Below are positions 8,641-60,483 of a DNA stretch of 64,000 bases, one piece after another. This DNA comes from Gemmatimonadota bacterium (lineage in GTDB: Bacteria > Gemmatimonadota > Gemmatimonadetes > Palauibacterales > KS3-K002): contig JBDHJS010000001.1 of assembly GCA_039586795.1 (NCBI GenBank), positions 48,507-112,506 of the forward strand, read 5' to 3'. The notes under the pieces were generated by a model. That model saw nothing but the letters and a program-made list of their open reading frames with translations. It was not told the DNA's origin and ran no database searches. The translations under genes were made by a program, and so were the position numbers. How positions within the stretch are numbered: the stretch's first letter is position 1; every line of letters begins with the position of its first letter.

Positions 8641-9909
8641 TCAGGCCGCGTCGGTGCCTTCGTGATCGATGGAAGGTGGCTTGCCGTACTCCCTACTTCG
8701 TAGCGTGAGAACCGTGACCTCGGGAGGCGTGCCGATGCGAAACGGGATTCCCCAGTAGTTGGTGCCCGGGTTGATGTAGAGCAGCGATTCCCCCTGACGA
8801 TGGACTCCCATCGACAAAGCCAGGAATGGTGAGGCGGCGTTCCAGTTGCGGCTGGGAATTGCCAGCTGGCCGTAGTGGGTGTGACCGCTGAGCGTCAGGT
8901 CGACTCCGCGAGCGGCGAGTTCCGGCCACAAGGCGGGGTTGTGCGCCAGGGCGAGAACCGGCTCGCCCTTCGGAATACGAGCGAGCGTGCGATCGATATC
9001 GGGCGCCGCATTCCGACCTTCGTGATTCCACGCTCGTCCGGCGGGGTCGCCGGCACCGGCGACCCAGAGCCGGTCGCCGCCGCGCTCAACCGCAACGGCC
9101 TCGTTCACCAGCACGGTGAAGCCGCCATCCAACAGCCCCTGCCGCACCGGACCCCAACCCGCGTAAACATCGTGGTTGCCCGCGATGGCGAAAACGCCGA
9201 GCGGAGCATCCAGGTCGCTGAAGGCTTCGTTGAAGTACTCGACATCGCGTGGGAAATCGTCGACCTGGTCGCCGGTGAAGACGATGATGTCGGGATGCGC
9301 GTTCCGCGCCGCATCCGCGACACGCGTCAGGTAGCGCCGCGACGTGTGCGGACCGACATGTAGGTCGGAAATCTGGACGATACGCAGCCCATCGAAGTCG
9401 TCGGGCAAGTTTGGCAACAAAACATCGAGGTGCCGCACGACCAGTCGTCGTGATCCTAGATAACCGGCCAGCGAAACGATACCCAGCAACGCACCGACCG
9501 TCGCCAAACCCCAGCGGCCCGCCACGCCTCCTGCTCCGAACCACACACCCACGGCGGCCACCGTCACACCCGCCACGGCAAGCAGCGGCATGACCAGCAT
9601 GGCGTACCAAAACGGCCGGAGCACGAACAATCGAGTGAGCGCGGAGGGATAGGTGGCGCCGCCCAGGCCACGCACCAAGACGAACACCGGTAGGCCGCCC
9701 AGCATTGCTACGCCGGCGACCGTCACCCACCCGCCGGGCAGGACGGGTTGGAGCAACGAACCCACCACCAGCCAGGACCCGCCGAGCCATACCGCGATGA
9801 ACGTGAGCACCCGGCGAAGTGGAAACGTCCGCCTTCGCTTCACTTCAGCGCTCTGAGCGCGCTCCGATTCCGGCCGCTGGATCGTGTCCAGCGCTCTGTC
9901 TCCCGTCAC
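8641..9909 (-). CDS. membrane-bound metallophosphoesterase (calcineurin-like phosphoesterase) with N-terminal multi-TM domain
   Basis: N-terminal 4-5 hydrophobic helices, then MPE motifs: DLH, GDQVDD, GNHD, GHTH; start overlaps the copA stop by 4 nt (9906-9909). Confidence 0.75.
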
Positions 9910-12440
9910 CGGGTCGCCCCGCTGATATCGACCTTTCTGAGGCGCGCGCTGTTGCTGACGACGTTGATGGAGCTGAAAGCCATGGCGGCTTCGGCGATGG
10001 CCGGGTGGAGGAAGCCCAGAATCGCGACGGGTATCGCGATCACGTTGTAGAAGTAAGCCCAGAACAGGTTCTGTCGGATCTTGCGGAACGTGGCCCGAGA
10101 TAGACGGATCGCTTTCACAACCGCCGACAGATTGCCCTGCACGAGGGTCACGTCTGCGGCCTCGATGGCGATATCGGTGCCGGTGCCGATGGCGATACCC
10201 ACGTTCGCTTGCTTGAGCGCCGGCGCGTCGTTGATGCCATCGCCGACCATAGCGACGTCGCGGCCTTCGCTCTGCAACCGACGCACCTCGTCCACCTTCT
10301 GATCGGGCAGTACCTCGGCGATCACACGATCGATGCCGACTTCTCGGGCAATGGCGTTCGCGGTGCGTTGATTGTCGCCGGTAAGCATGACGGTCTCGAG
10401 GCCGAAGCGCTTGAGCTCCGCGATGGCTTCCTTCGAGTCGTCTTTCAGCGTATCGGCCACGGCGATCACCCCCGCAAGTCGATCGCCGACCCCAACAAAC
10501 ATTGCGGTCTTGGCCTCATCCTCCAGGCGATCCAGTTCCGTGGCCAGCTGATCGAGCGTGATATCGTGTTCCTCCATCAACCGGGCGTTCCCGACGACCA
10601 CGAGCTGCCCCTCGATCGTCGCGACGACGCCGCGACCGACGGCCGCTTCGAACCGTGATGCGCTACTGGCAGTCACACCGCGCTTCAGCGCTTCAGCCAC
10701 GATGGCGCTACCCAAAGGATGTTCGGATCCCAGCTCGGCGCCGGCAGCGTACCTGAGCACTTCGTTCGCATCTCGGCCCGCCGCCGGCACGATATCGGTC
10801 ACACCCGGTTCGCCCCTGGTGATAGTGCCTGTCTTGTCGAGGACGATCGTGTCGACCTCTTTGAGAGTTTGGATCGCCGCTCCGCTCCGGAACAACACAC
10901 CGTTCTCGGCGCCCATGCCGGTACCGACCATCAGCGCCGTAGGCGTGGCGAGGCCGAGGGCGCACGGACAGGCGATGACCAACACGGCCACTGCGGCGAA
11001 TATCGCCAGCGAAACGCGACTCAAGCTCGGGTCGACCCACGGCAGAAAGCCCGAAGCCCATTCGGCGATCGAAGCGAAGGCGCCGGGGAAGATGAGCCAG
11101 GCGAGGAACGTGGCGGTGGCAACCGCCAGAACCGTCGGAACGAAGACGGCGGTCACACGATCGGCGAACTGCTGTATCGGGACCTTCGTGCCCTGGGCCT
11201 CTTCCACCATGCGGATGACGTTGGCCAGGAAAGTGTCCTCGCCGACGCCGGTGGCCCGGACCCGAAGCAGTCCTTCTTTGTTGATCGTGGCACCGATGAC
11301 CCGGTCGCCCTCAGCCTTCTCCACCGGCATCGATTCGCCCGTAGCCAGTGACTCATCGACTGAAGAGTGGCCGCCAATCACTTCGCCGTCGGTGGGAATC
11401 TTCTCGCCGGGCCGCACGATCATCACGTCGCCGACTTCAACCTCTTCGATGGGCACCTCGACCTCGGCACCGTCCCGCTCGACGCGAGCGGTCTTCGCCT
11501 CCAACGACAGCAGCTTCTGAATCGCGGCGGACGTACGACCGCGGGCCCTGGTCTCCACGTAACGGCCGGTGAGGTGGATGGCCATGATCATTCCACCGAC
11601 GCCCGCATAGTTGAGCAGCTTGGGCGCAAAGCCCAGATCGTAAGCGACGGTGACGAAACCAGTGGCGAAGGCGACGGTGGAGCCGATGGCGATGAGGGTG
11701 TCCATCGTCGGCGTGCCGTTCACCAGACTCCGGAAGCCAGCGCGAACTGTGTCCCAGCCCCAAACGAACAGGACCGGTGCGGCGAGGACGATCATCCCGA
11801 TGTCATAGGCGAGCGCGGAGGGCCACATGACACCGAAGAACATGTGGGGGATCATCCAGGCGATGATCGGCGCGGTCAGCACCCAGGCGAAGACCATCCG
11901 GCGTTGCGCATCATCGACCTTACGCTGGTCTTCCTCGAGACGCTCCCGCTCCCGTGCCAGACGGCGCTCGGCGCCCGCGCGCTCAACAGAAGCCACGCCG
12001 TAGCCCGCGGCCTCCACCGCGGCACGCATGTCATCGACGCGAACCTGACCGGGGATGTGCGACACGGTCGCCTTGTGAGTCGCGATGTTCACAGCCGCCG
12101 AGTCCACGCCATCCAGTTCGGCCAGAGCCTTCTCTACCGCTGCCGAGCACGAGGCACAGTGCATCCCCTCAACATCGAGAACGACCGTCTGCGGCTTCGC
12201 CTTGACCTCAAAGCCCGCCTTCTCCACGGCACGGCGAAAGTCATCGAGCCCGACCTGGCCGCCGTAGTATTCAACCGTCGCCTTTTCGGTTGCCAGGTTC
12301 ACACTCGCCTGCTCCACACCGTCCAGTCCGGCCAGCGCTTTCTCCACCGCCGCGGAACACGACGCGCAGTGCATGCCGCCGATCTCGAGCGTCTCTTTCT
12401 TCAATGTTCGTTGAGCCATCATCAGATTCCGCCAAAACAA
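9906..12440 (-). CDS. copA: copper-translocating P1B-type ATPase with two N-terminal HMA domains
   Basis: Two [18 protein letters not shown] domains, [10 protein letters not shown] transmembrane metal site, DKTGTIT phosphorylation motif, [10 protein letters not shown] hinge. Confidence 0.9.
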
Positions 12441-12505
12441 CGGGCGCCGGCCCCGGAATGTTCTCCGGAGCCCACGCCCGAGTCTATTCAGTTCAGACCG
12501 CTTAC

Positions 12506-12552
12506 TGCTTAGCGCTTACCACCCACTACCTACCACCTACCACTCACCACCT
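12506..12552 (-). repeat. G-rich GGTAGG-repeat element in RNA sense immediately 3' of stop codon (CTACC repeats on plus strand)
   Basis: ccacccactacctaccacctaccactcaccacctaccg directly abuts the stop codon of the upstream minus-strand gene; related copies at 13770-13812, 21737-21776 and 21846-21881. Confidence 0.5.
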
Positions 12553-13216
12553 ACCGACCGCCACCGCCCTCTTCGTGGTGCACCCGATGCCGCATCCGCA
12601 TACCCTGCCCATCGCCCTCACCTTCCATATGCATACGCATCTGCCGCATACCCTGACGGCGAAATACCTCGGCGCCTTCCTTCCAAGTCTCGAACTTCTG
12701 GCGCTGCGCATCGTTCAGCACGCCCAACGTCTGGCGCTCCACGTCGATGAAGCTCTTGGCCTGGGCGGTGCGGAGTCGAGCCAGCTCGTCGATGGCGCTC
12801 TCCATCGCGTCGTAGTCGTCGGCTCTGCGGGCTTCGGCGAGCGCTTCGGCCTGCTTCTGCATCTGCTCGCGCATGCCGGTCATCAGCGCCTGGTGGCTGG
12901 TGTGTACGCCCTCGAGCTGAGTGACCTGCTCCTCGGAGAGCTCGAGATCGTCCTTGAGGCCGATCAGGAAATGCGGGCCGAGGTGCGCCGCTCCCATGCG
13001 GGCGCTGGTCCTCATGTGCCGCATGCCCTGCCGCATACCCCGCATGCTCATCCGGCCCTGTCGGCCCATCTGGCGCATCATGCCGCGGTGAGCGCGCCGC
13101 ATCTGCGCCGTGGTATCCTGCTCTGCTTCTTGAGCAGCGCCAACCGCAGGTAGCGCCAGGAGCGCCGCCAACGCGAGTGCTGCTGCTGCTGGGAATCGCA
13201 TATTCATCTTGCCCAA
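12551..13216 (-). CDS. periplasmic Spy/CpxP/ZraP-family protein (LTXXQ motifs) with Met- and His-rich metal-binding-like termini
   Basis: Signal peptide; LSEEQVTQL and LNDAQRQKF LTXXQ-type motifs; Met-rich N-region (MRQMGRQGRMSMRGMRQGMRHM) and MRMHMEGEG...HRVHHEE C-tail; lies between csoR and copA. Confidence 0.55.
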   Translation of the reverse strand: MGKMNMRFPAAAALALAALLALPAVGAAQEAEQDTTAQMRRAHRGMMRQMGRQGRMSMRGMRQGMRHMRTSARMGAAHLGPHFLIGLKDDLELSEEQVTQLEGVHTSHQALMTGMREQMQKQAEALAEARRADDYDAMESAIDELARLRTAQAKSFIDVERQTLGVLNDAQRQKFETWKEGAEVFRRQGMRQMRMHMEGEGDGQGMRMRHRVHHEEGGGGR

Positions 13217-13298: not shown

Positions 13299-13601
13299 TC
13301 AGCGAACGTAGCGGCCCAACAGGTCGACGATCTCCTGCCTCACCTGCTCCGCCGCCGGACCGCCCTCCATGATGGCGTGGGCGGCGCAGCGATCCAGGTG
13401 GTTCCCCAGCAGTTCGCGCTCCACGGCCCGGAGCGCCGAATGGACGGCGGTGCACTGCTGGAGGATGTCGGGGCAGTATCGCTCTTCGTCCACCATGCGC
13501 TGAATTCCTTCCACCTGCCCGCGGACTCGGGCAAGACGCTTGAGCAGGTCGCGCTTGGTGTTGTCGGCGATACCCATTGCATGTGAGGGATTCTCTGTCA
13601 T
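13299..13601 (-). CDS. csoR: copper-sensing transcriptional repressor, CsoR/RcnR family
   Basis: DUF156-type four-helix bundle with the conserved Cys (YCPDILQQ), His (HSAL) and C-terminal Cys (DRCAAHA) ligands; start taken at internal Met (MTENPSH), verified as CAT at 13599-13601. Confidence 0.8.
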   Translation of the reverse strand: MTENPSHAMGIADNTKRDLLKRLARVRGQVEGIQRMVDEERYCPDILQQCTAVHSALRAVERELLGNHLDRCAAHAIMEGGPAAEQVRQEIVDLLGRYVR

Positions 13602-13628
13602 CCGGCAGGGCCTCCTCTGTAGAGAGTA

Positions 13629-13652
13629 TATGCTATACTGGGGTATAGTATA
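13629..13652 (-). promoter_or_regulatory. candidate CsoR operator: inverted repeat TATGCTATAC-TGGG-GTATAGTATA
   Basis: Near-perfect 10-bp arms around a G-tract, 28-50 nt upstream of the csoR start; resembles the GC-tract-centred palindromes bound by CsoR proteins. Confidence 0.45.
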
Positions 13653-13769
13653 AGAAACCCGTCCCGTCTGCAACCCCCTCCCTCCTGCTAGTGCTCACGC
13701 TCGTGACCCTGTTCAACTCTATCACGAGCAGGAGATGAAAAGAGATACGGCCGGCCCCGTGACACGAAG

Positions 13770-13812
13770 CCGACCGTCTACTGTCTACCCTCTACTGTCT
13801 ACCGTCTACCGC
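13770..13812 (-). repeat. GTAGAC/GGTAGA-repeat element (RNA sense) immediately 3' of the diheme cytochrome c gene
   Basis: gaccgtctactgtctaccctctactgtctaccgtctaccg overlaps the stop codon at 13806; same family as 12506-12552 and the 21.7-kb inverted repeats. Confidence 0.5.
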
Positions 13813-14552
13813 GCCGATCGCTCCCGTAGGTAGTTCGCGATGGCATCCGCCTCACGGTCTGTGAGCGGCGCGATATCCATGGCGTTCATCAAGCCACGCA
13901 TCCGGGCAACGATGGCGTCCCACCCGGCGGCGGTGTGTGCGCGCGGCGACGGCGGCGCGTGACAGATGGCGCACCTCTGCATGAAGAGGTCGAGGCCGGG
14001 TCCGTCCGTCAGTTCGCCGGGTTCGGCTTCCGGCAACGCGTTCCTCTGCAGGTAAGAGAGGATCGAGTCGGTCTGCTCCGGCGTCGGGTACTCGGCCGTC
14101 TCGAGTCCAGCCATCACCACGTCGCCGATCAGGCCGGTTGTGAGCGGGCCGCCTAGTCGGTACTCCAGGGTCTGAGCCCGGTAAAGCATGTTGCGCAGCA
14201 AATACGGCCATTCGGTCGCAGTATGCATCTTGGGTGACGGCAGCCAGTGGCACTGGATGCAGTAAACTTGGAGAAGGCCGGCGCCGCGCGAGCCGGGTTC
14301 GGGCAGCTGCTCCGGTGTGTAGTTGATGGGCGGCAGACCGGAACCGACGGACGCGATCAAGCGCCAGCGCGTACCGCGTTCCATGGCGGCGGTGGCGGTT
14401 CCACCGAGCTCGGCGAGCACGCTGTCGACGACGGCGATGTCGACCTCCTGGTTCGCCTGCTCCTGGACGCAGCCGGCCGCCACTACCGTGAAAGCAAGCG
14501 CGGCGAGGACACCACCCAGTCGCGACCACTTCTCCCGGCTCTGTCTGTGCAT
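13806..14552 (-). CDS. diheme c-type cytochrome lipoprotein
   Basis: Lipoprotein signal (VVAAGC); two CxxCH motifs (CIQCH, CAICH), each followed by similar ATEWP/AAGWD segments, suggesting an internal duplication. Confidence 0.7.
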   Translation of the reverse strand: MHRQSREKWSRLGGVLAALAFTVVAAGCVQEQANQEVDIAVVDSVLAELGGTATAAMERGTRWRLIASVGSGLPPINYTPEQLPEPGSRGAGLLQVYCIQCHWLPSPKMHTATEWPYLLRNMLYRAQTLEYRLGGPLTTGLIGDVVMAGLETAEYPTPEQTDSILSYLQRNALPEAEPGELTDGPGLDLFMQRCAICHAPPSPRAHTAAGWDAIVARMRGLMNAMDIAPLTDREADAIANYLRERSAR

Positions 14553-17602: not shown

Positions 17603-18544
17603 TTGTCGATGGCACACATACGTTGGTCGCAGCTCCGCATCGGGCTGTTTGTAACGGTGATCTCGATCGCATCGGCCATCGTCGTGTTCTTCATCGACCG
17701 CTTCAGCGATATGCTCTCCGAGCCCTACACGCTGTATTTTCACACCCTCACCAACCAACCGCTAGCACGGCGGGCGCCCGTATGGCTGGCCGGGCAGCCG
17801 GTTGGACACGTTCAGAGCTTGAGGCTCTTCACGCCCGAGATAGGTCAACAAGACGTGTTGAGCGTCGAGATGGCCATCGACCAGAGCGCCATGCCTTTCA
17901 TCACAGAAGGCGCCGGCGTACGGGTCACCAGCGCCGGCCTGCTGGGAGAGGCCATCGTGAACATCACGCCGGCCACGGAGCCGGGACCGCCGGTGCCGGA
18001 AGGATCGGTGCTTCCCGCCGCGTACTTCATCGACCCGCAAGAGGCAACCCACAAGTTCAGGGCGATCTCCGACTCGCTGAAGCCGGTTATCGATCGGTGG
18101 GGCGAGGTGCTTCAACTGGCGCGGCACGGAGACGGTACCCTGAGCAGGTTGATGCGCCAACCGAGTGACCTACTGGACCTACACGCCAATCTGCAGGCCG
18201 CGGCCGTGACGCTCGACACGGTGGGCCGGGTGGCGGGTGGACTGGCGGGACTATTCAGCGAACCCGACGTGCGCGGCGCGCTCGACCAACTCGGTCCCCG
18301 TCTCGAGACGCTGATGAACCGTTGGAACGACCCGACCGGAAGCGTCGGTCAATTCAGCAGCGACACGACGCTCGCCACACACCTGGAGAGCATTCAGCGC
18401 ACCGTGGCGCAGGTGAACGAGCGCCTGGAAACGGGAGACGGGACGCTGGGCCGATTCAAGTCCGATCGGGCCCTAGCCGAGGAGTTAGAGCGGACACGGG
18501 AACTACTTCAAGCCCTGCGGCGGGACCTCTCCGGGGGAGGCTAA
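17603..18544 (+). CDS. MlaD/MCE-family protein
   Basis: N-terminal TM helix followed by an MCE domain (PVWLAGQPVGHVQSLRL...VRVTSAGLLGEAIVNI) and a C-terminal helical region. Confidence 0.7.
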   Translation: MSMAHIRWSQLRIGLFVTVISIASAIVVFFIDRFSDMLSEPYTLYFHTLTNQPLARRAPVWLAGQPVGHVQSLRLFTPEIGQQDVLSVEMAIDQSAMPFITEGAGVRVTSAGLLGEAIVNITPATEPGPPVPEGSVLPAAYFIDPQEATHKFRAISDSLKPVIDRWGEVLQLARHGDGTLSRLMRQPSDLLDLHANLQAAAVTLDTVGRVAGGLAGLFSEPDVRGALDQLGPRLETLMNRWNDPTGSVGQFSSDTTLATHLESIQRTVAQVNERLETGDGTLGRFKSDRALAEELERTRELLQALRRDLSGGG

Positions 18545-18545
18545 C

Positions 18546-18592
18546 AATCCCCGAACCTCGTAATCCCCGAACCCCCGAATCCCATCACCTCC
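18546..18592. repeat. copy of dispersed CGAATCCCC/AATCCCCGAAC repeat element
   Basis: AATCCCCGAACCTCGTAATCCCCGAACCCCCGAATCCC; 24/27 identity to 46360-46402; located between convergent genes mlaD and 18585..18971. Confidence 0.5.
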
Positions 18593-18971
18593 CCCGCCGA
18601 CGCCCCCTCCTCGCCTTACCCAGATCCCCTCTCTTCGGCAGCGACCCATCAATGATGAACGTGATGTCGCCTTTGCCGTCTGAGGAGCGGGAGGTGACCA
18701 CGATCTGATCGACCTGGCTCTTCGCATCGTCCACCGTCACCTCGAAGTTGACCTTCCCGTCGGCCGATGTGATTCGCGTCCGTACTTTGTCGCCGGGATC
18801 GCGCTCGGCACAGGTCGCCGGATTCCGAAACAGCGTCTTGGTGGACTGACGGTTACCCGCCGACAGCGTGCGGGAGATCTTGATCTGCCGCAGCCAGTCG
18901 GGCTGGTAGCTGATTTTGTACTTGGCACCGTGCTGATCGATGCCTTCTCCATCGCGATTATGCCGGGCCAT
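18585..18971 (-). CDS. hypothetical protein (128 aa)
   Basis: GC3-rich codon usage consistent with coding; no recognisable motif; basic C-terminal tail. Confidence 0.4.
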   Translation of the reverse strand: MARHNRDGEGIDQHGAKYKISYQPDWLRQIKISRTLSAGNRQSTKTLFRNPATCAERDPGDKVRTRITSADGKVNFEVTVDDAKSQVDQIVVTSRSSDGKGDITFIIDGSLPKRGDLGKARRGRRRGR

Positions 18972-20470: not shown

Positions 20471-21733
20471 ATGAGTAACTCCCTAGACATAGCCGAGCTT
20501 AAGGCCAAATCGGTACAAGACCTCCATGAGATGGCCGAGGAGCTCAACATCCAGAACTACTCCGGCCTGCGCAAGCAGGACCTGATCTTCCGCATCGAAC
20601 AGAACTTGCTCGACTCCGACGTGATCCTCCGCGCCGAAGGCGTGCTGGAGATTCTGCCGGAGGGCTACGGTTTCCTGCGCAGCCAGGACTGGAACTATCT
20701 GTACGGTCCGGATGACATCTACGTGTCTCCATCACAGATCAAGCGATTCGATCTGCGGACCGGCGATACCGTATTGGGCCAAGTGCGGCCTCCCAAAGAG
20801 GGCGAGCGATACCTGGCGCTGCTCAAGGTGGAGGTCGTCAACGGTGAGGATCCGGAGAAGTCGAAGCATCGGATCAGCTTCGACAATCTGCGGCCCCGTT
20901 ATCCGGAGGAGCGCATCACCCTGGAGCGCAAGAACGGCGACATCGCCAACCGGATCATCGATCTGGTCGCGCCCACCGGGAAGGGTCAGCGCGGCCTCAT
21001 AACCTCGCCGCCGAAGGCCGGTAAGACAATCCTCCTGCAAAAGGTCGCCAATGCGATCACCGAAAACCACCCCGACGTTCACCTCATCGTTCTGCTCATC
21101 GACGAGCGTCCGGAAGAGGTGACGGACATGGAGGAGCACGTCGATGCTGAAGTGATCGCGTCGACGTTCGATGAGCCAGCCGATCGTCACACTCAGGTCG
21201 CCGAGATGGTGATCGAGAAGGCCAAGCGTCTCGTAGAGCACAAGCACGACGTTGTGATTCTGCTCGACTCGATCACTCGATTGGCTCGCGCCTACAACGT
21301 CGTTGTGCCCCACTCGGGTAAGATCCTGTCCGGTGGTGTGGACGCCAACGCGCTTCACAAGCCGAAACGGTTCTTTGGCTCGGCGCGTAACCTGGAAGAG
21401 GGCGGCAGTCTGACGATCATCGCGACGGCGCTCATCGAGACCGGTTCCCGAATGGACGAGGTGATCTTCGAGGAATTCAAAGGCACCGGCAACATGGAGA
21501 TTGTCCTCGATCGACATATCGCCGACAAGCGCATCTTCCCCGCAATCGACATTAACCGATCCGGAACGCGCCGCGAAGAATTGCTGCTCGACGAGAAGAC
21601 TCTCAACCGGATGTACCTGCTCAGAAACTTCCTCGCCGATATGCCGCCGGCGGAGTCGATCGAGTTCTTGATTCAGAGGATGAAGCGGGCGGAGAATAAT
21701 GACGAGTTCTTGGATTCGATGCAGGAAGGGTGA
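20471..21733 (+). CDS. rho: transcription termination factor Rho
   Basis: Full-length (420 aa) match to the Rho architecture: N-terminal RNA-binding OB domain, P-loop [16 protein letters not shown] and R loops. Confidence 0.95.
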
Positions 21734-21736
21734 TTG

Positions 21737-21776
21737 GGCGTAGGGGGTTGAGGGTAGAGAGTAGAGGGTAGGAGGC
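21737..21776 (+). repeat. left arm of ~40-bp inverted repeat (GGGCGTAGGGGGTTGAGGGTAGAGAGTAGAGGGTAGG), a GTAG-repeat element 3' of rho
   Basis: Starts 4 nt after the rho stop; reverse complement matches 21846-21881 with few mismatches. Confidence 0.55.
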
Positions 21777-21803
21777 GGACGCGCAGCTGACAGTCAAAGA
21801 ACA

Positions 21804-21852
21804 GAAACGGCCGGACGTGCTTGCCGCGCGCCGGCCGTCTTCTTTCCCCCTA
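21804..21852. terminator. bidirectional rho-independent terminator candidate between convergent rho and PRT genes
   Basis: GC-rich hairpin (AAACGGCCGG...CCGGCCGT) followed by TCTTCTTTCCCCC on the plus strand and preceded by GAAACAGAAAC (T-run on the minus strand). Confidence 0.5.
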
Positions 21853-21881
21853 CTCCCTACCCTTCACCCCCTACGCCCTAC
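21846..21881 (-). repeat. right arm of inverted repeat; GTAG-repeat element 3' of the phosphoribosyltransferase gene
   Basis: CCCCCTACTCCCTACCCTTCACCCCCTACGCCC is the reverse complement of the 21737-21776 arm; abuts the stop codon at 21878. Confidence 0.55.
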
Positions 21882-22426
21882 GCGTCACCACTCTCCCCAA
21901 GCAAATCTTCATACTCCGGATTAACCACCAGCCGTCCCGACTCACTCTCAACCACCTCCCTATCCCAGGGGAAGACAACAATGCCGTCCGTGGCAAGGGC
22001 GAAGTAATCGGGCTGGTAGCCGCCTTCGCGGACCAGAGACGTGGCGGTGCGCACCTCCGTGGGCCCGACGTCGCGTACGGCGGCGAGGGCGAGGCGCATC
22101 GTGTCGCCGCTGTCACAGATTTCATCGACGAGTAGCACATTGCGGCCCGCCAGTTGCGGCGGTGCGACGGACAACACCTCCGGGCGCTGAAGCGAGCCAT
22201 CGTCGTCCTCGCGGCGGGTGATCTTTATGGCGTAGAACGGCTTCTGAAGCATGGCGGCAACGACAGCGCCGGGGATCACGCCGGCGGCGGCGATCCCGAC
22301 AACGACATCGGGCTCGAAATCGCGAGCCACGGTAATCCCGAGAACGCGGCAGAGCTCGCCGAACAACTCCCAAGAAAGCTCCAGAACGCCATCGCCGTGC
22401 AGGTCGGTGAAATCGAGTTCGGCCAC
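21878..22426 (-). CDS. phosphoribosyltransferase-family protein (PRPP-binding, HGPRT/XPRT-like)
   Basis: PRPP-binding loop VLLVDEICDSGDTM. Confidence 0.65.
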   Translation of the reverse strand: MAELDFTDLHGDGVLELSWELFGELCRVLGITVARDFEPDVVVGIAAAGVIPGAVVAAMLQKPFYAIKITRREDDDGSLQRPEVLSVAPPQLAGRNVLLVDEICDSGDTMRLALAAVRDVGPTEVRTATSLVREGGYQPDYFALATDGIVVFPWDREVVESESGRLVVNPEYEDLLGESGDA

Positions 22427-35539: not shown

Positions 35540-35610
35540 ATTCGGGGATTCGCTCAGCCAATCGCCGAAGCCGCGAATCTGGTGACCCCCGAATCGCTCC
35601 AATCCCTCCG
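35540..35610. repeat. CGAATCCCC/GGGGATTCG motif cluster (ATTCGGGGATTCGC ... CCCCCGAATCGC)
   Basis: Same motif family as 18546-18592, 46262-46402 and 60420-60460. Confidence 0.4.
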
Positions 35611-35660
35611 AGTAGACGTGGCGGGCCGTATATAGTTATATTTAGATATAGGCATTATAA

Positions 35661-35900
35661 ATGACAGTAACCCATAGAGAGATAAACACTTTGCCTACAT
35701 ACGATTACGTTTGCCTTGAGTGTGGCCGGCAGTTCGACGTGAGGGCCTCGATTTCCGCCTACTCGGCCGGTCTTTCGCCCCACTGCCCGGACTGTGGATC
35801 GGACAACGCGGATCGGAGGTTCTCCTCAGTGAACGTGCTCACGGGGTCGCAGGAGTCGGCAGGCTCGCCGCCGAATTGCGGTCCATCGGGCTTCAGTTGA
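35661..35900 (+). CDS. FmdB-family zinc-ribbon putative regulatory protein
   Basis: LPTYDYVCLECG...CPDCGS: the FmdB N-terminus (M-P-T-Y-x-Y-x-C-x-x-CG); the real start is probably the TTG at 35691 (GAGAG RBS), the ATG at 35661 being an upstream alternative. Confidence 0.65.
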   Translation: MTVTHREINTLPTYDYVCLECGRQFDVRASISAYSAGLSPHCPDCGSDNADRRFSSVNVLTGSQESAGSPPNCGPSGFS

Positions 35901-44951: not shown

Positions 44952-45635
44952 CTATCGCCAGACCGAAGTGGATGTTTGAACCGGTGTGTCCACCGGTCGC
45001 GCTTCACCTAACTGGATGCCGACAAGGGTCTCAAGCGTCGCAGTGCGCTCGTTCCACAGATTGACAAGGACGCGGCGGTCAACGCCGAGCTGGCGGCTTT
45101 CATGGATCATGCCGTCGAGAATCAGGATCCGATCCTCGAGCGCGGAAACGGCGATCGCCGTCGGCGCGTCGTAGACGCGGTACTGCGTCGGGTACGTTTG
45201 GAGAAGTGTTTCAAGCTCACGCGAGCGGTTGATGTACAGCTCGAGGTCGGGAGTCGCTTCGGCCACCCGGCCCTCCTCAACCGGGGCAACGGTTCCGTCC
45301 ACGACGGGACCCGGTGTAATCGGTTCGCCGCCACGCAGCAAGATGAAGCCGGTCAACGCGGCTGCTGCAGCGAGCCCAACCGTTCCGGCGCCCCACCAGC
45401 GACGCTTTCGCCGCTGGCTCACATCGGCGGCAACGTTCGTCCACAAGTCTCGCGGCGGCGTGAACGCGGGTAGCGCCTTCAGTTCCGCCCTGACTCTGAA
45501 GAGGCGCTCCAGTTCGCGCCGGCAATCCTCGCACGACTCCAGATGCGTCTGAGCATGCGCCGACCCCTCACCATCTCTCTCGGCCAGCAGTTCGTGCATC
45601 TCCAGATGTCGCAAGTTTACCATCAGTCCAACCAC
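44952..45635 (-). CDS. membrane anti-sigma factor (zinc-finger HxxxCxxC type)
   Basis: HLESCEDCRREL motif, TM (TVGLAAAAALTGFILL); immediately downstream of and overlapping the ECF sigma gene. Confidence 0.6.
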   Translation of the reverse strand: MVGLMVNLRHLEMHELLAERDGEGSAHAQTHLESCEDCRRELERLFRVRAELKALPAFTPPRDLWTNVAADVSQRRKRRWWGAGTVGLAAAAALTGFILLRGGEPITPGPVVDGTVAPVEEGRVAEATPDLELYINRSRELETLLQTYPTQYRVYDAPTAIAVSALEDRILILDGMIHESRQLGVDRRVLVNLWNERTATLETLVGIQLGEARPVDTPVQTSTSVWR

Positions 45636-46159
45636 TCCCGCAGACGTTTGTGCGCTCTCGATAGCTGTGACTTCGAGAAGCTGGCTGTCTTGCCCATCAT
45701 CTCGCCAATCTCTTCGTGCGTGTAGCCTTCCACGTCATGCAGCCAGAGCACCGAACGGGTCACCGGAGTCAAACGCCCCAGGGCGGCCTCCAGATCGATC
45801 GGTCCCGTCGGCTCCGGTGGATTCGTGCCGATCAATTCCAAGCTAATCACCTCGCCAGAGACCGTGCGTCGCGAACGGTTCCGTTCGCGACGCAGCAGCA
45901 TGAGCGCCTTGCTGACCGCCACCTGGCGGATCCAGCCCCAGAGGGAGCCGTCACCGCGATAGCGCCTGATGGACCGACACACCTCGACAAACGTGTCCTG
46001 CAGCACATCTTCCGCATCCTCTTCGTTGCCACAGATTCGGCGCCCCAGGTTGTAGACCTGGGTTCGATAGGCGCGGTAGACGCTCTCCAGGGCCTCGAGG
46101 TCCCCAGCCCGGGCGCGCGCCACCAGGGCATCGGCCAGCACTAAAGCATCGCTGCTCAT
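45623..46159 (-). CDS. RNA polymerase sigma-70 factor, ECF subfamily
   Basis: Region 2 (DVLQDTFVEV) and region 4 (VLWLHDVEGYTHEEIGEMMGKTASFSKSQLSRAHKRL). Confidence 0.85.
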   Translation of the reverse strand: MSSDALVLADALVARARAGDLEALESVYRAYRTQVYNLGRRICGNEEDAEDVLQDTFVEVCRSIRRYRGDGSLWGWIRQVAVSKALMLLRRERNRSRRTVSGEVISLELIGTNPPEPTGPIDLEAALGRLTPVTRSVLWLHDVEGYTHEEIGEMMGKTASFSKSQLSRAHKRLREWLD

Positions 46160-46261
46160 TCCACCCTGTATAGATGCGTGAAGGGCCCAAACCGTCGCCC
46201 CTATATAGGTGAAGTTTCGCCCTATGTCCCGAGCACCTAGTTTTTAGGGGTCCCAAGCCCT

Positions 46262-46402
46262 GACCGGGGGGATTCCGGGTTTCGTGGGTTACAAGGCTCG
46301 GGGATTCGGGGGGAATCGGGGATTGCTTCGCAGGCGGTCCAGGTTTCCCCGGATAATCCCAGAATCTCGTAAGCCCCTAATCCCAGAATCCCCGAATCTT
46401 CA
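46262..46402. repeat. cluster of CGAATCCCC/GGGGATTCG repeat units in both orientations in a 290-bp divergent intergenic region
   Basis: GGGGGGATTCCGGG, CGGGGATTCGGGGGGAATCGGGGATTG, AATCTCGTAAGCCCCTAATCCCAGAATCCCCGAATC. Confidence 0.45.
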
Positions 46403-46451
46403 GGGCGTGTGACCTTCGCGACCGTTCATCCCCCGACGGGAGGGCCGTCAA

Positions 46452-48368
46452 ATGGGTCTCGACGCCAAAGCCGAGCGCGAGCCGGAAGCCATCCGGGAAT
46501 TCACCCGCAGCATGCTGAAGGATCTTCGCGCGCTGGAGCGGATCATCGACGAGGGGATGATCGAGTCCGGCGTGCGACGAATCGGCATGGAGCAGGAGAT
46601 GTTCCTCGTGGACAGCGGATACCGGCCGGCCCCGGTCGCATTGGAGGTCTTGGCCAGGTTGGGCGAGGGCGGAGCGTATACGACCGAGCTGGCGCGGTTC
46701 AACCTGGAGGTGAACCTGGCGCCGCTGGACCTGCAGGCCGACTGTTTCTCACAAATGGAGAACGAGCTCTCGCGGCACGTGGAGGAAGTGCGTGAGGCGG
46801 CGCGCAAGGAGGGCGCCGAGATCTTATTGACGGGAATTCTTCCCAGTCTGGCCAAGTCCGATCTCAGCCTCGAGAACATCACGCCCAAGGATCGCTACTA
46901 CGCCCTGAACGAGTCGATGACGCGCCTGCGGGGCGGGCCGATGCAGCTACAGATCCTGGGGATTGATGAGGTGAACATCGAACACGACTCGGTGATGTTG
47001 GAGGCATGTAACACCAGTTGTCAGGTCCATTTGCAGGTCGCGGCGGACGAGTTCGCCCGTTTTCACAATGCCGCCCAGGCGGTACTCGGCCCGGTGTTGG
47101 CAGCCTGCACCAACTCTCCGCTGTTGTTCGGTCGTCGGCTGTGGTACGAGACGCGCATCGCGCTTTTTCAGCAGTCGGTGGATACGCGGAGCGCGCTGTC
47201 GCACCTTCGCGACCAGACTCCCCGGGTCCGATTCGGCGATGCCTGGGTGAAGGATTCGGTATTGGAGCTCTTTCAGGAGGATATCGTCCGCTTCCGAGCA
47301 TTGATGCCGATGGTTCCGGACAAAGACCCGTTGGCCGAATTGGACGAGGGCCGAATCCCCGAACTGTCGGCACTACAGTTGCATAACAGCACGGTGTACC
47401 GCTGGAACCGTCCCTGCTACGGGCTGTCGAACGGGACGCCGCATCTGCGCATCGAGTGTCGGGCGATTCCGGCCGGCCCAACAATCGCTGATGAGGTGGC
47501 GAATGCCGCGCTCTGGATCGGAGCGGTTATCGGTATCGTCAACGAGTTCGGCGATGTGACCGAATACCTGGAGTTCGATGACGCTAAGGCGAATTTCCTA
47601 GCCGCCGCGCGTCGCGGCCTGAACGCCGTCCTCACCTGGACGAACGATGATTCCGTGGATGCGACGGAACTGGTCATCGAGCGGCTGATTCCCATCGCCC
47701 GGGCCGGCCTGGAAGAAGTCGGCGTGAGCGGTGGAGACATAGAAAAGTATCTGGGAGTAGTACGTGACCGAGTCGATTCGGGCGGCACCGGAGCGCAGTG
47801 GATGCTACGATCGCTGCAGAACATGAAGGACGTGGGGACGCGCCCGGAGCGGCTGGCGGCGCTGGCCGGCGCCATAGCCGAACGACAATACAGCGGGAAG
47901 CTAGGGCACGAATGGAAGCCAGCCGAGCTGGCCGAAGCCGGAGGCTGGCGTAGAAATTACCTGCGGGTCGATCAGTACATGACAACCGAACTGTTTACGG
48001 TTCACGAGGATGAGTTGATCGACCTGGTTGCGTTCGTGATGGACAAGAAGAACATACGCCACGTTCTCGTGGAGGATGACGATCACCAGATCGTTGGTCT
48101 GGTATCGTATCGATCGTTGATCAGGCTACTGACGCGGGGACAGATCGGCGAACCGGGGATCACCGTTCCCGTGAAGGACGTCATGGTCAAGGATCCGATC
48201 ACGATATCGCCAGAGACGCCGACCACGGAGGCGATCGAGCTGATGCACAAGCATCGCTGCTCGGTTCTGCCGGTCGTGAAGGGTGGCAAGTTGGTTGGCA
48301 CCGTCGGCGAGCGCGATTTCATGCCTATAGCCCGCCATTTCCTGGAAGAGAAATTGAGGGAAGAGTGA
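46452..48368 (+). CDS. glutamate-cysteine ligase family 2 (GCS2, carboxylate-amine ligase) fused to C-terminal tandem CBS domains
   Basis: GCS2-type core (~500 aa; MEQEMFLVD, ECRAIPAGP) followed by a CBS pair (residues ~505-630); GGGAGGG RBS. Confidence 0.7.
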   Translation: MGLDAKAEREPEAIREFTRSMLKDLRALERIIDEGMIESGVRRIGMEQEMFLVDSGYRPAPVALEVLARLGEGGAYTTELARFNLEVNLAPLDLQADCFSQMENELSRHVEEVREAARKEGAEILLTGILPSLAKSDLSLENITPKDRYYALNESMTRLRGGPMQLQILGIDEVNIEHDSVMLEACNTSCQVHLQVAADEFARFHNAAQAVLGPVLAACTNSPLLFGRRLWYETRIALFQQSVDTRSALSHLRDQTPRVRFGDAWVKDSVLELFQEDIVRFRALMPMVPDKDPLAELDEGRIPELSALQLHNSTVYRWNRPCYGLSNGTPHLRIECRAIPAGPTIADEVANAALWIGAVIGIVNEFGDVTEYLEFDDAKANFLAAARRGLNAVLTWTNDDSVDATELVIERLIPIARAGLEEVGVSGGDIEKYLGVVRDRVDSGGTGAQWMLRSLQNMKDVGTRPERLAALAGAIAERQYSGKLGHEWKPAELAEAGGWRRNYLRVDQYMTTELFTVHEDELIDLVAFVMDKKNIRHVLVEDDDHQIVGLVSYRSLIRLLTRGQIGEPGITVPVKDVMVKDPITISPETPTTEAIELMHKHRCSVLPVVKGGKLVGTVGERDFMPIARHFLEEKLREE

Positions 48369-60217: not shown

Positions 60218-60426
60218 GGTGTTACCCCTCGGTTCAGATTCCCGAATGCCATGGCTGGCCTGGCCCGACGCCGGCCGGCCAGAGGCGTCAAACCGATGCC
60301 CAACCGGCCGGAACCGGGCGTCGGTGAACGCCTCAAACAGGTGCTATTTGCAGGCTAAAGTTAGCGGCTACGGAGAAGGTGCGCGAGCAGCGGCGGGGGG
60401 CTCGACAGGGTTGAGCAATAATGCGA

Positions 60427-60459
60427 ATCCCCCGGTTCTCGACCGAGAGTCCGGGGGAT
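60427..60459 (-). terminator. terminator hairpin downstream of the cytochrome c gene (ATCCCCCGG-N15-CCGGGGGAT)
   Basis: 9-bp GC-rich stem with inner CTCG/CGAG pairing, about 25 nt after the stop codon; also carries the CGAATCCCC motif. Confidence 0.5.
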
Positions 60460-60483
60460 CTACACCTAGCAGGAAGCTACTTC

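Follow-up and report, generated by a model that had tools for sequence, protein, structure and literature searches.

An inverted pair of octamer arrays between divergent genes of a Gemmatimonadota bacterium, probably a G-rich simple sequence repeat of the GGGNATC type

Heptamer repeats of the GGGNATC type have been described as GGGAATC in Xanthomonas and as GGGGA(C/T)T in Nostoc (Rehm 2015, PLoS One, PMC4692102). They are dispersed, about 90% intergenic, made of 2 to 26 units, variable at the same site between related species, mostly transcribed, and able to form G-quadruplexes (G4) in vitro (PMC4692102). They follow a positional rule, the G-rich strand lying antisense just upstream of an open reading frame (ORF) and sense just after a stop codon; in X. 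campestris, 70 cases of two close convergent repeat sites were recorded among 186 repeat patterns (PMC4692102). We describe here a pair of repeat arrays that probably belongs to this class. It lies in a 64-kb stretch of contig JBDHJS010000001.1 from a Gemmatimonadota bacterium (hereafter 'the window', numbered from its first letter), in the spacer between a gene for an ECF sigma factor and a divergent gene for a protein with GCS2 and CBS domains (GCS2-CBS).

Two further kinds of repeat are relevant. According to the account given in PMC4679880, long simple sequence repeats (SSRs) with units of 5 to 11 nt are concentrated in non-coding DNA, slippage having been proposed for them (Mrazek 2007, cited therein), and heptamers are the commonest unit in the long-SSR surveys that it covers. 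TAACTGA heptamer direct repeats occur in Beggiatoaceae, Cyanobacteria and Bacteroidetes (MacGregor 2015, PMC4679880); these are A/T-rich, mostly direct, and placed within a few nucleotides upstream of start codons. Set against such systems, the feature studied here would seem a fairly ordinary, known kind of intergenic repeat, seen in a new bacterial group. Cyanobacterial STRR heptamers are of the same kind, being short-unit tandem repeats in the non-coding DNA of large environmental genomes.

The spacer extends from 46160 to 46451 (292 bp). On its left is the ECF sigma factor gene, on the minus strand (45623-46159; Pfam Sigma70_r2 and Sigma70_r4_2), and on its right, on the plus strand, the GCS2-CBS gene (46452-48368; GCS2, glutamate-cysteine ligase family 2), identified from Pfam and from homologues that carry the names Gemmatimonadota or Longimicrobiales. 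An earlier reading of this DNA, made from the letters alone (the sequence-only reading), had noted at this place a divergent spacer holding at least six copies of a GGGATTC(G)/GAATCCC core in both orientations, one of them a near-palindrome. This is what is found: the spacer holds nine core copies, namely three exact 7-mers (GGGATTC at 46269 and 46301, GAATCCC at 46386) and six with one mismatch, and the near-palindrome CGGGGATTCGGGGGGAATCGGGGATTG lies at 46299-46325.

The property that is not random is the 8-nt phasing of the motif copies, together with their clustering. Counting the motif against expectation, as had been proposed, gave no enrichment: the 64-kb window contains GGGATTC 15 times, for 10.7 +/- 3.3 expected, and GGGGATTCG with at most one mismatch 28 times, for 27.8 expected. 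Raw counts being unenriched, the proposed statistic misses the signal. When AATCCCNNAATCCCNNAATC was searched with at most three mismatches, 10 matches were obtained in the window for 0.34 expected, all of them within three intergenic loci, and a scan for 32-nt tandem octamers returned 11 hits in the window and none in 20 shuffles. The original observation is therefore partly confirmed: it holds as phased octamer arrays, and not as an enriched motif.

Two arrays, or arms, make up the pair in the spacer. The left arm (46268-46325, plus strand), delimited from the sequence, the repeat families and the tandem-octamer scan, is a G-rich array of about seven GGGGATTC-type units, in the order GGGGATTC CGGGTTTC GTGGGTTA CAAGGCTC GGGGATTC GGGGGGAATC GGGGATTG, one of which is 10 nt long. 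The right arm (46354-46401, given on the plus strand and G-rich on the minus) is a C-rich array of six units of the (G/T)AATCCCN type, in the order TAATCCCA GAATCTCG TAAGCCCC TAATCCCA GAATCCCC GAATCTTC; besides the scans, Tandem Repeats Finder (TRF) reports it at 46355-46398 with period 8, 5.5 copies and 72% matches. As a consensus, the octamer reads GGGGATTC/GGGGAATC on one strand and, on the opposite one, GAATCCCC. The two arms are mutually inverted, forming a 39-nt inverted repeat with 77% complementarity.

The octamer recurs at two other places in the window, so that there are three copies in 64 kb, of differing lengths and about 75 to 80% similar. The first, at 18545-18584, is a single array whose G-rich strand is the minus strand; it was recognized from the sequence, the tandem-octamer scan, a phased pattern and TRF (periods 8 and 16 at 18546-18583). 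It takes up precisely the whole interval between two convergent stops, that of an MlaD-domain gene (plus strand, ending at 18544) and that of a 128-aa ORF (18585-18971, minus strand). The sequence-only reading had reported that a composite unit of the spacer recurs here. The resemblance is real, 46362-46398 matching 18545-18592 at 28 of 37 positions in the best register, but it holds in several registers, because both tracts are arrays of one octamer; on reading the sequences, the variant unit CTCGTAA is common to the two tracts. The other copy (35540-35610, plus strand), downstream of an asparaginase-family gene, had likewise been listed as a family member. It is one, though only a weak and degenerate one, with 22 of 32 matches to the tandem consensus and one three-mismatch match. 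A third proposed member, at 60420-60460, had to be removed: it is a plain stem-loop (stem of 9+4 pairs, DNA fold z-score -4.1) with no phased array.

Our preferred reading, which we hold to be probable, places the spacer feature in the class of GGGNATC-type repeats, with an 8-nt G-rich simple sequence repeat forming two degenerate tandem arrays that converge in inverted orientation. The likenesses to the described GGGNATC repeats are several. The window unit consists of a tract of three or four Gs followed by A/T and C, the units GGGGATTC, GGGGAATC and GGGGATTG all having the form G3-4 + (A/T)2-3 + C, and GGGGAATC and GGGGATTC being both present. The arrays are head-to-tail and intergenic, and the convergent pair is able to form a stem-loop; at the same site, they vary in length and sequence across related genomes. 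The positional rule fits both genes flanking the spacer, as well as the minus-strand ORF at 18585-18971. The differences are that the window unit is 8 nt and not 7, that the host phylum is Gemmatimonadota, and that the arrays are degenerate, such that a G4 would need loops of 11 to 13 nt.

As among long SSRs as summarised in PMC4679880, several unit types coexist in the window genome, which has octamers and at least three heptamer types; unlike in those surveys, the host is a member of the Gemmatimonadota, no genome of which is among those cited in that account. With the TAACTGA repeats the window arrays share an intergenic location, short tandem units, a patchy occurrence across phyla, unit-sized insertions and deletions (indels) and mixed-unit arrays. 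They differ from them in having a G/C-rich unit and an inverted arrangement, and in that 50 nt separate the nearer arm from the ATG.

Under the preferred reading, the arrays would arise and turn over by slipped-strand mispairing, and the inverted copy would stem from template switching or from quasi-palindrome correction; no transposition would be involved, and no selection for a sequence that a protein binds. Phase variation of the octamer arrays was considered as well and rejected, the arrays being too imperfect for high-rate slippage, which is unlikely at a unit identity of about 70%.

The sequence-only reading had offered two mechanisms of its own, a dispersed REP/MITE-like element and a repeated binding site. 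Its claim of a dispersed, multi-locus repeat family that is not due to chance was upheld, and both mechanisms were set aside. REP/REPIN elements are intergenic inverted doublets that are mobilised by RAYT and form a hairpin of about 100 to 150 nt. The window feature is also an intergenic inverted doublet able to form a hairpin, its architecture resembles that of REP doublets in having two inverted arms round a spacer, related sequence is present at two further loci of the window, and TGACC flanks it on both sides (46260-46264 and 46410-46414). It could thus be a REP/REPIN- or MITE-like mobile element, in which two inverted REP-type sequences are mobilised by RAYT or a transposase. We nevertheless judge this highly improbable. 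Each arm is a phased tandem array and not a palindrome, nor is it self-complementary: single-arm folds reach -5, -0.2 and -0.7 kcal/mol (z-scores -1.3, +1.7 and -0.2). The octamer copies have no common length or ends, with no shared end motif among the copies read, and the one at 18545-18584 is a single arm. No target-site duplication was found common to the window and to L001, the orthologous locus of a close relative, which has no flanking direct repeat matching TGACC.

Searching a metagenome collection with the 22-nt composite AAYCTCGTAAKCCCCNAAYCCC gave three matches, one in an octamer array and two in non-repetitive sequence; so few matches argue against a fixed dispersed element, although the test is weak because the lineage is sparsely sampled. 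Moreover, many phyla have arrays of the same unit type, with 3 to 25 units. No transposase was found among the 17 window ORFs scanned against Pfam; no search aimed at RAYT was made.

More improbable still, if only slightly, is that a DNA-binding regulator, for instance a dimer on GATTC-N6-GAATC, recognizes the feature as a series of sites and governs the divergent ECF sigma and GCS2 promoters through it. Such a role would suit a site between divergent genes whose synteny is conserved across Gemmatimonadota, as well as the local palindrome at 46299-46325 and the GGAATCGGGGGATTCC of the relative L002. The palindrome is lost in L001, however, where the alignment shows a gap and substitutions despite a GCS2-CBS protein that is 91% identical. 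Of 11 orthologous spacers, 8 lack the array altogether, although other blocks in them are conserved. Furthermore, an 8-bp unit spacing does not match the helical repeat, and the same unit lies between two convergent stop codons (18545-18584), a place where one would not expect a promoter.

The history of the pair was examined in these 11 orthologous spacers, the window included, whose GCS2-CBS proteins are 69 to 100% identical. The octamer pair is present in three of them, those of the window, L001 and L002/L003 (86% GCS2-CBS identity), and absent from the other eight (L127, L005, L128, L133, L129, L136, L134 and L135). Since most orthologues do without it, the pair appears dispensable. Where it is present, the arms differ between relatives by substitutions and by unit-sized indels.

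Two other parts of the spacer are conserved. A block next to the start codon of the ECF sigma gene (TCCACCCTGTATAGATGCGYGAGG...AAACCGTCGCC on the plus strand; 46160-46200, assigned to the minus strand) is kept in all 10 orthologous spacers whose contigs extend that far, and probably holds the leader or promoter of that gene. The second is a bipartite promoter-like motif, GTTTC-N19-TAGTT (46214-46242, plus strand), delimited by orthologue conservation, with a -10-like part of the form TAnnTT. In the form GTTTC-N19-TAnnT it occurs with identical spacing in 10 of the 11 spacers (window, L001, L002, L127, L005, L128, L133, L129, L136 and L135), and only once in the 64-kb window, which makes it locus-specific and rules it out as a general promoter type. 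We take it as a candidate promoter of GCS2-CBS, and the divergently encoded ECF sigma factor could be what reads it. A sigma-70 consensus promoter scan of the spacer found no sites.

This motif stands 65 to 99 nt from the start codon in seven relatives without the pair, and 206 to 215 nt from it in the window, L001 and L002. These distances suggest that the sublineage of the window has gained the pair within the leader, and about 140 nt with it. Alternatively, the pair may have been lost in L127 (82% identity), which keeps one GGGATTC at the site of the pair and, because of this retained unit, does not offer a clean empty site. Between the block on the sigma side and the motif, other relatives have arrays of different kinds: inverted pairs of heptamers in L129 and L136, G-rich tracts in L133 and L002, and purine-rich repeats in L005, which also has heptamer arrays in other spacers of its own. 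In this comparison of orthologues, the spacer, and the intergenic DNA of the lineage generally, appears to gain repeatedly short-unit arrays of varying sequence. The long plus-strand G-rich tracts of L133 (2760-2865) and L002 (520-625) lie between the divergent promoter regions and are absent from the window; that of L133, GGGCGGGCGGGCG...GGGGTGGGGGTGCGGGGGCAGGCGGGGG, has many potential G4 motifs.

Because the pair sits downstream of the promoter-like motif, it is probably transcribed, and would then form an imperfect hairpin of about 150 nt, beginning within a few nucleotides of where the GCS2-CBS mRNA starts. By folding, the whole hairpin covers 151 nt (46257-46407), with an inner stem in the 28-nt stretch between the two arms. 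As RNA, its minimum free energy is -82.6 kcal/mol (z-score -5.0) for the plus strand and -74.7 kcal/mol (z-score -5.6) for the minus strand; a 197-nt fold has a z-score of -3.1, and folded as DNA it reaches only -1.2. On the preferred reading the effect of such a hairpin would most likely be neutral or mildly modulatory, for example as a 5' stem-loop acting on mRNA stability or translation.

A different view is that the hairpin, or a switch between G-quadruplex and hairpin, has been selected as a cis-regulatory element, belonging either to the GCS2-CBS leader or to the two divergent promoters. It would then stabilise the 5' end, offer a site to RNase III, modulate translation or insulate transcription. 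We consider this rather unlikely, although it is the alternative with the most in its favour. The hairpin lies directly downstream of the conserved motif and is stable in the window (z-scores of -4.3 to -5.0) and in L001 (-2.8), and L005 has at the same 5' position a GC hairpin that is unrelated in sequence. Yet the window (-4.3), L001 (-2.8) and L005 (-2.5) are the only unusually stable leaders. The hairpin itself is absent from 8 of the 11 orthologous leaders, and seven of these are not unusually structured, so that a 5' hairpin is not a conserved feature of the leader; in L002, which has its own version, it is not significantly stable (z-score about -1). The arrays of L129, L136, L133 and L002 that lie upstream of the motif are, for this reason, not in the leader.

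Nor is either RNA strand favoured, a strand preference through G-U pairs having been tested and none found. Rfam gave no match in the window at the gathering score, hence none for the hairpin, and at a permissive E-value the spacer gave only chance-level matches (E 0.5 to 1.5, to microRNA and small RNA models). No intrinsic terminator, that is, a GC-rich stem with a T-run, was found in 46000-46600. A canonical G4 motif (loops of at most 7 nt) is present in neither arm; there is one motif with loops of up to 12 nt, at 46266-46303, and G-quadruplex formation in the spacer would be possible only with long loops.

Several points weigh against the reading of the pair as a neutral simple sequence repeat of the GGGNATC class. 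The arms are 61 to 62% identical between the window and L001, more than the four-fold degenerate sites (49%), a difference that may be in part an artefact of repeat alignment. In a three-sequence alignment with 76.7% pairing cells, nine pairs carry changes on both sides, where shuffling gives 5.1 +/- 1.6 such pairs and reaches nine in 9 of 500 cases; this test rests on three sequences only, and on a structure derived from one of them. It gives weak evidence that arm-arm complementarity, and with it part of the arm pairing, has been kept, which selection or templated correction between the arms could explain alike and which establishes no function. Taken together, arm conservation and pairing hint at constraint or concerted evolution as against pure neutrality, and both count in favour of a selected hairpin. 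In addition, the arrays are degenerate, with about 70% unit identity, and ongoing slippage is only inferred; genome-wide dispersal is extrapolated from three octamer loci in 64 kb; and the transcription start is placed by the conserved motif. Finally, the pair lies between divergent genes, a setting in which GGGNATC repeats are under-represented (7-8%; Rehm 2015, PMC4692102).

The distribution of the octamer was then considered beyond the lineage. A scan with AATCCCNNAATCCCNNAATC, using one genome per species, gave at least 119 loci, a number that is conditioned on the AATCCC core and silent on the frequency of other units. Most of these loci are true arrays, of 3 to 25 units, and AATCCC-type octamer arrays were found in at least 11 phyla, including at least four Gemmatimonadota genomes. 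Among the matches listed, and grouping by record title, Bacteroidota had at least about 28 loci, Planctomycetota at least about 22, Chloroflexota at least about 14, Cyanobacteria at least about 11, Desulfobacterota, Myxococcota and other "Deltaproteobacteria" at least about 14, Proteobacteria at least about 9, Acidobacteriota at least about 7, Gemmatimonadota at least four, and others at least about 10.

Among the same listed matches, inverted pairs within 250 nt were biased in orientation, 22 being G-then-C, the orientation of the window pair, against three C-then-G, all three from one locus; the G-rich array thus comes first almost always, whichever strand is read. This cross-phylum bias agrees with the convergent pairs reported in Xanthomonas (PMC4692102), and it also speaks for a selected hairpin. 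It further raises the idea that convergent (GGGATTNN)n ... (NNAATCCC)n pairs are an orientation-constrained functional element common to several phyla, and not products of neutral slippage; such pairs could, for instance, form a hairpin/G-quadruplex switch insulating or terminating neighbouring transcription units. We think this unlikely, and somewhat more so than selection on the hairpin of the GCS2-CBS leader. If it were true, the 8-nt form would be an undescribed, widespread variant in Gemmatimonadota, Planctomycetota, Bacteroidota, Chloroflexota, Cyanobacteria, Acidobacteriota and Desulfobacterota.

In the loci listed (L007-L125), the arrays often adjoin arrays of different 7- to 8-nt units or terminator-like hairpins. 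Several perfect arrays, those of L067, L076 and L097 among them, stand where a contig ends, suggesting that assemblies break at arrays. The gene context of arrays in the 119 foreign loci listed, as given by a crude longest-ORF gene caller, was discarded and its numbers were not used: the caller is unreliable because repeat tracts create spurious ORFs, 18562-18583 being called coding, for example.

Heptamer arrays accompany the octamers in the window. All three octamer loci and the four heptamer sites of the 64-kb window are intergenic. A periodicity scan at 80% self-identity detected the heptamer arrays and missed the octamer arrays, which are too degenerate for it. An inverted heptamer pair at 21728-21892, recognized by TRF, sequence and folding, consists of a GGGTAGA-type array, a central GC hairpin and a CCCTACN-type array, and sits between the convergent genes for rho (20471-21733) and a phosphoribosyltransferase (21878-22426), both from Pfam. 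Its RNA folds have z-scores of -9.6 and -8.6, and its heptamer arrays have canonical G4 motifs on both strands (21728-21878). It looks like a bidirectional terminator with inverted repeat arrays on either side.

Two further heptamer arrays, both given on the plus strand, belong to a copper-resistance cluster, made up of genes for a P-type ATPase (9906-12440), an LTXXQ protein (12551-13216), a CsoR-type repressor (13299-13601) and a cytochrome c (13806-14552). The CTACCAC-type array at 12497-12555 was found by TRF, sequence and the periodicity scan, and is intergenic within the cluster. The CTACCGT/CTACTGT array at 13773-13811 (TRF periods 7 and 14, and sequence) reaches the cytochrome c gene at its stop, where it covers the final 6 nt of the ORF. 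A CTAC core is common to the heptamer units of the cluster. Just upstream of the CsoR-family repressor gene (PF02583, E 3e-26), an AT-rich near-palindrome (GTATATGCTATACTGGGGTATAGTATAAG, 13620-13655) looks like an operator of this repressor. Elsewhere, the sharply AT-rich stretch 35620-35665 (TATATAGTTATATTTAGATATAGGCATTATAAATGACAG) stands out in a window of 62% GC; it lies immediately 5' of a small gene for a zinc-ribbon protein (35661-35900; Pfam Zn_ribbon_8).

The importance of these results is modest. They remove a tempting mis-annotation of the spacer as a mobile element or an operator. On the preferred reading, a class of bacterial G-rich intergenic repeats that is still poorly understood would now include an 8-nt unit and reach into the Gemmatimonadota. 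A pair gained inside a 5' leader would also provide, among close relatives, a natural comparison with and without the repeat for effects on expression.

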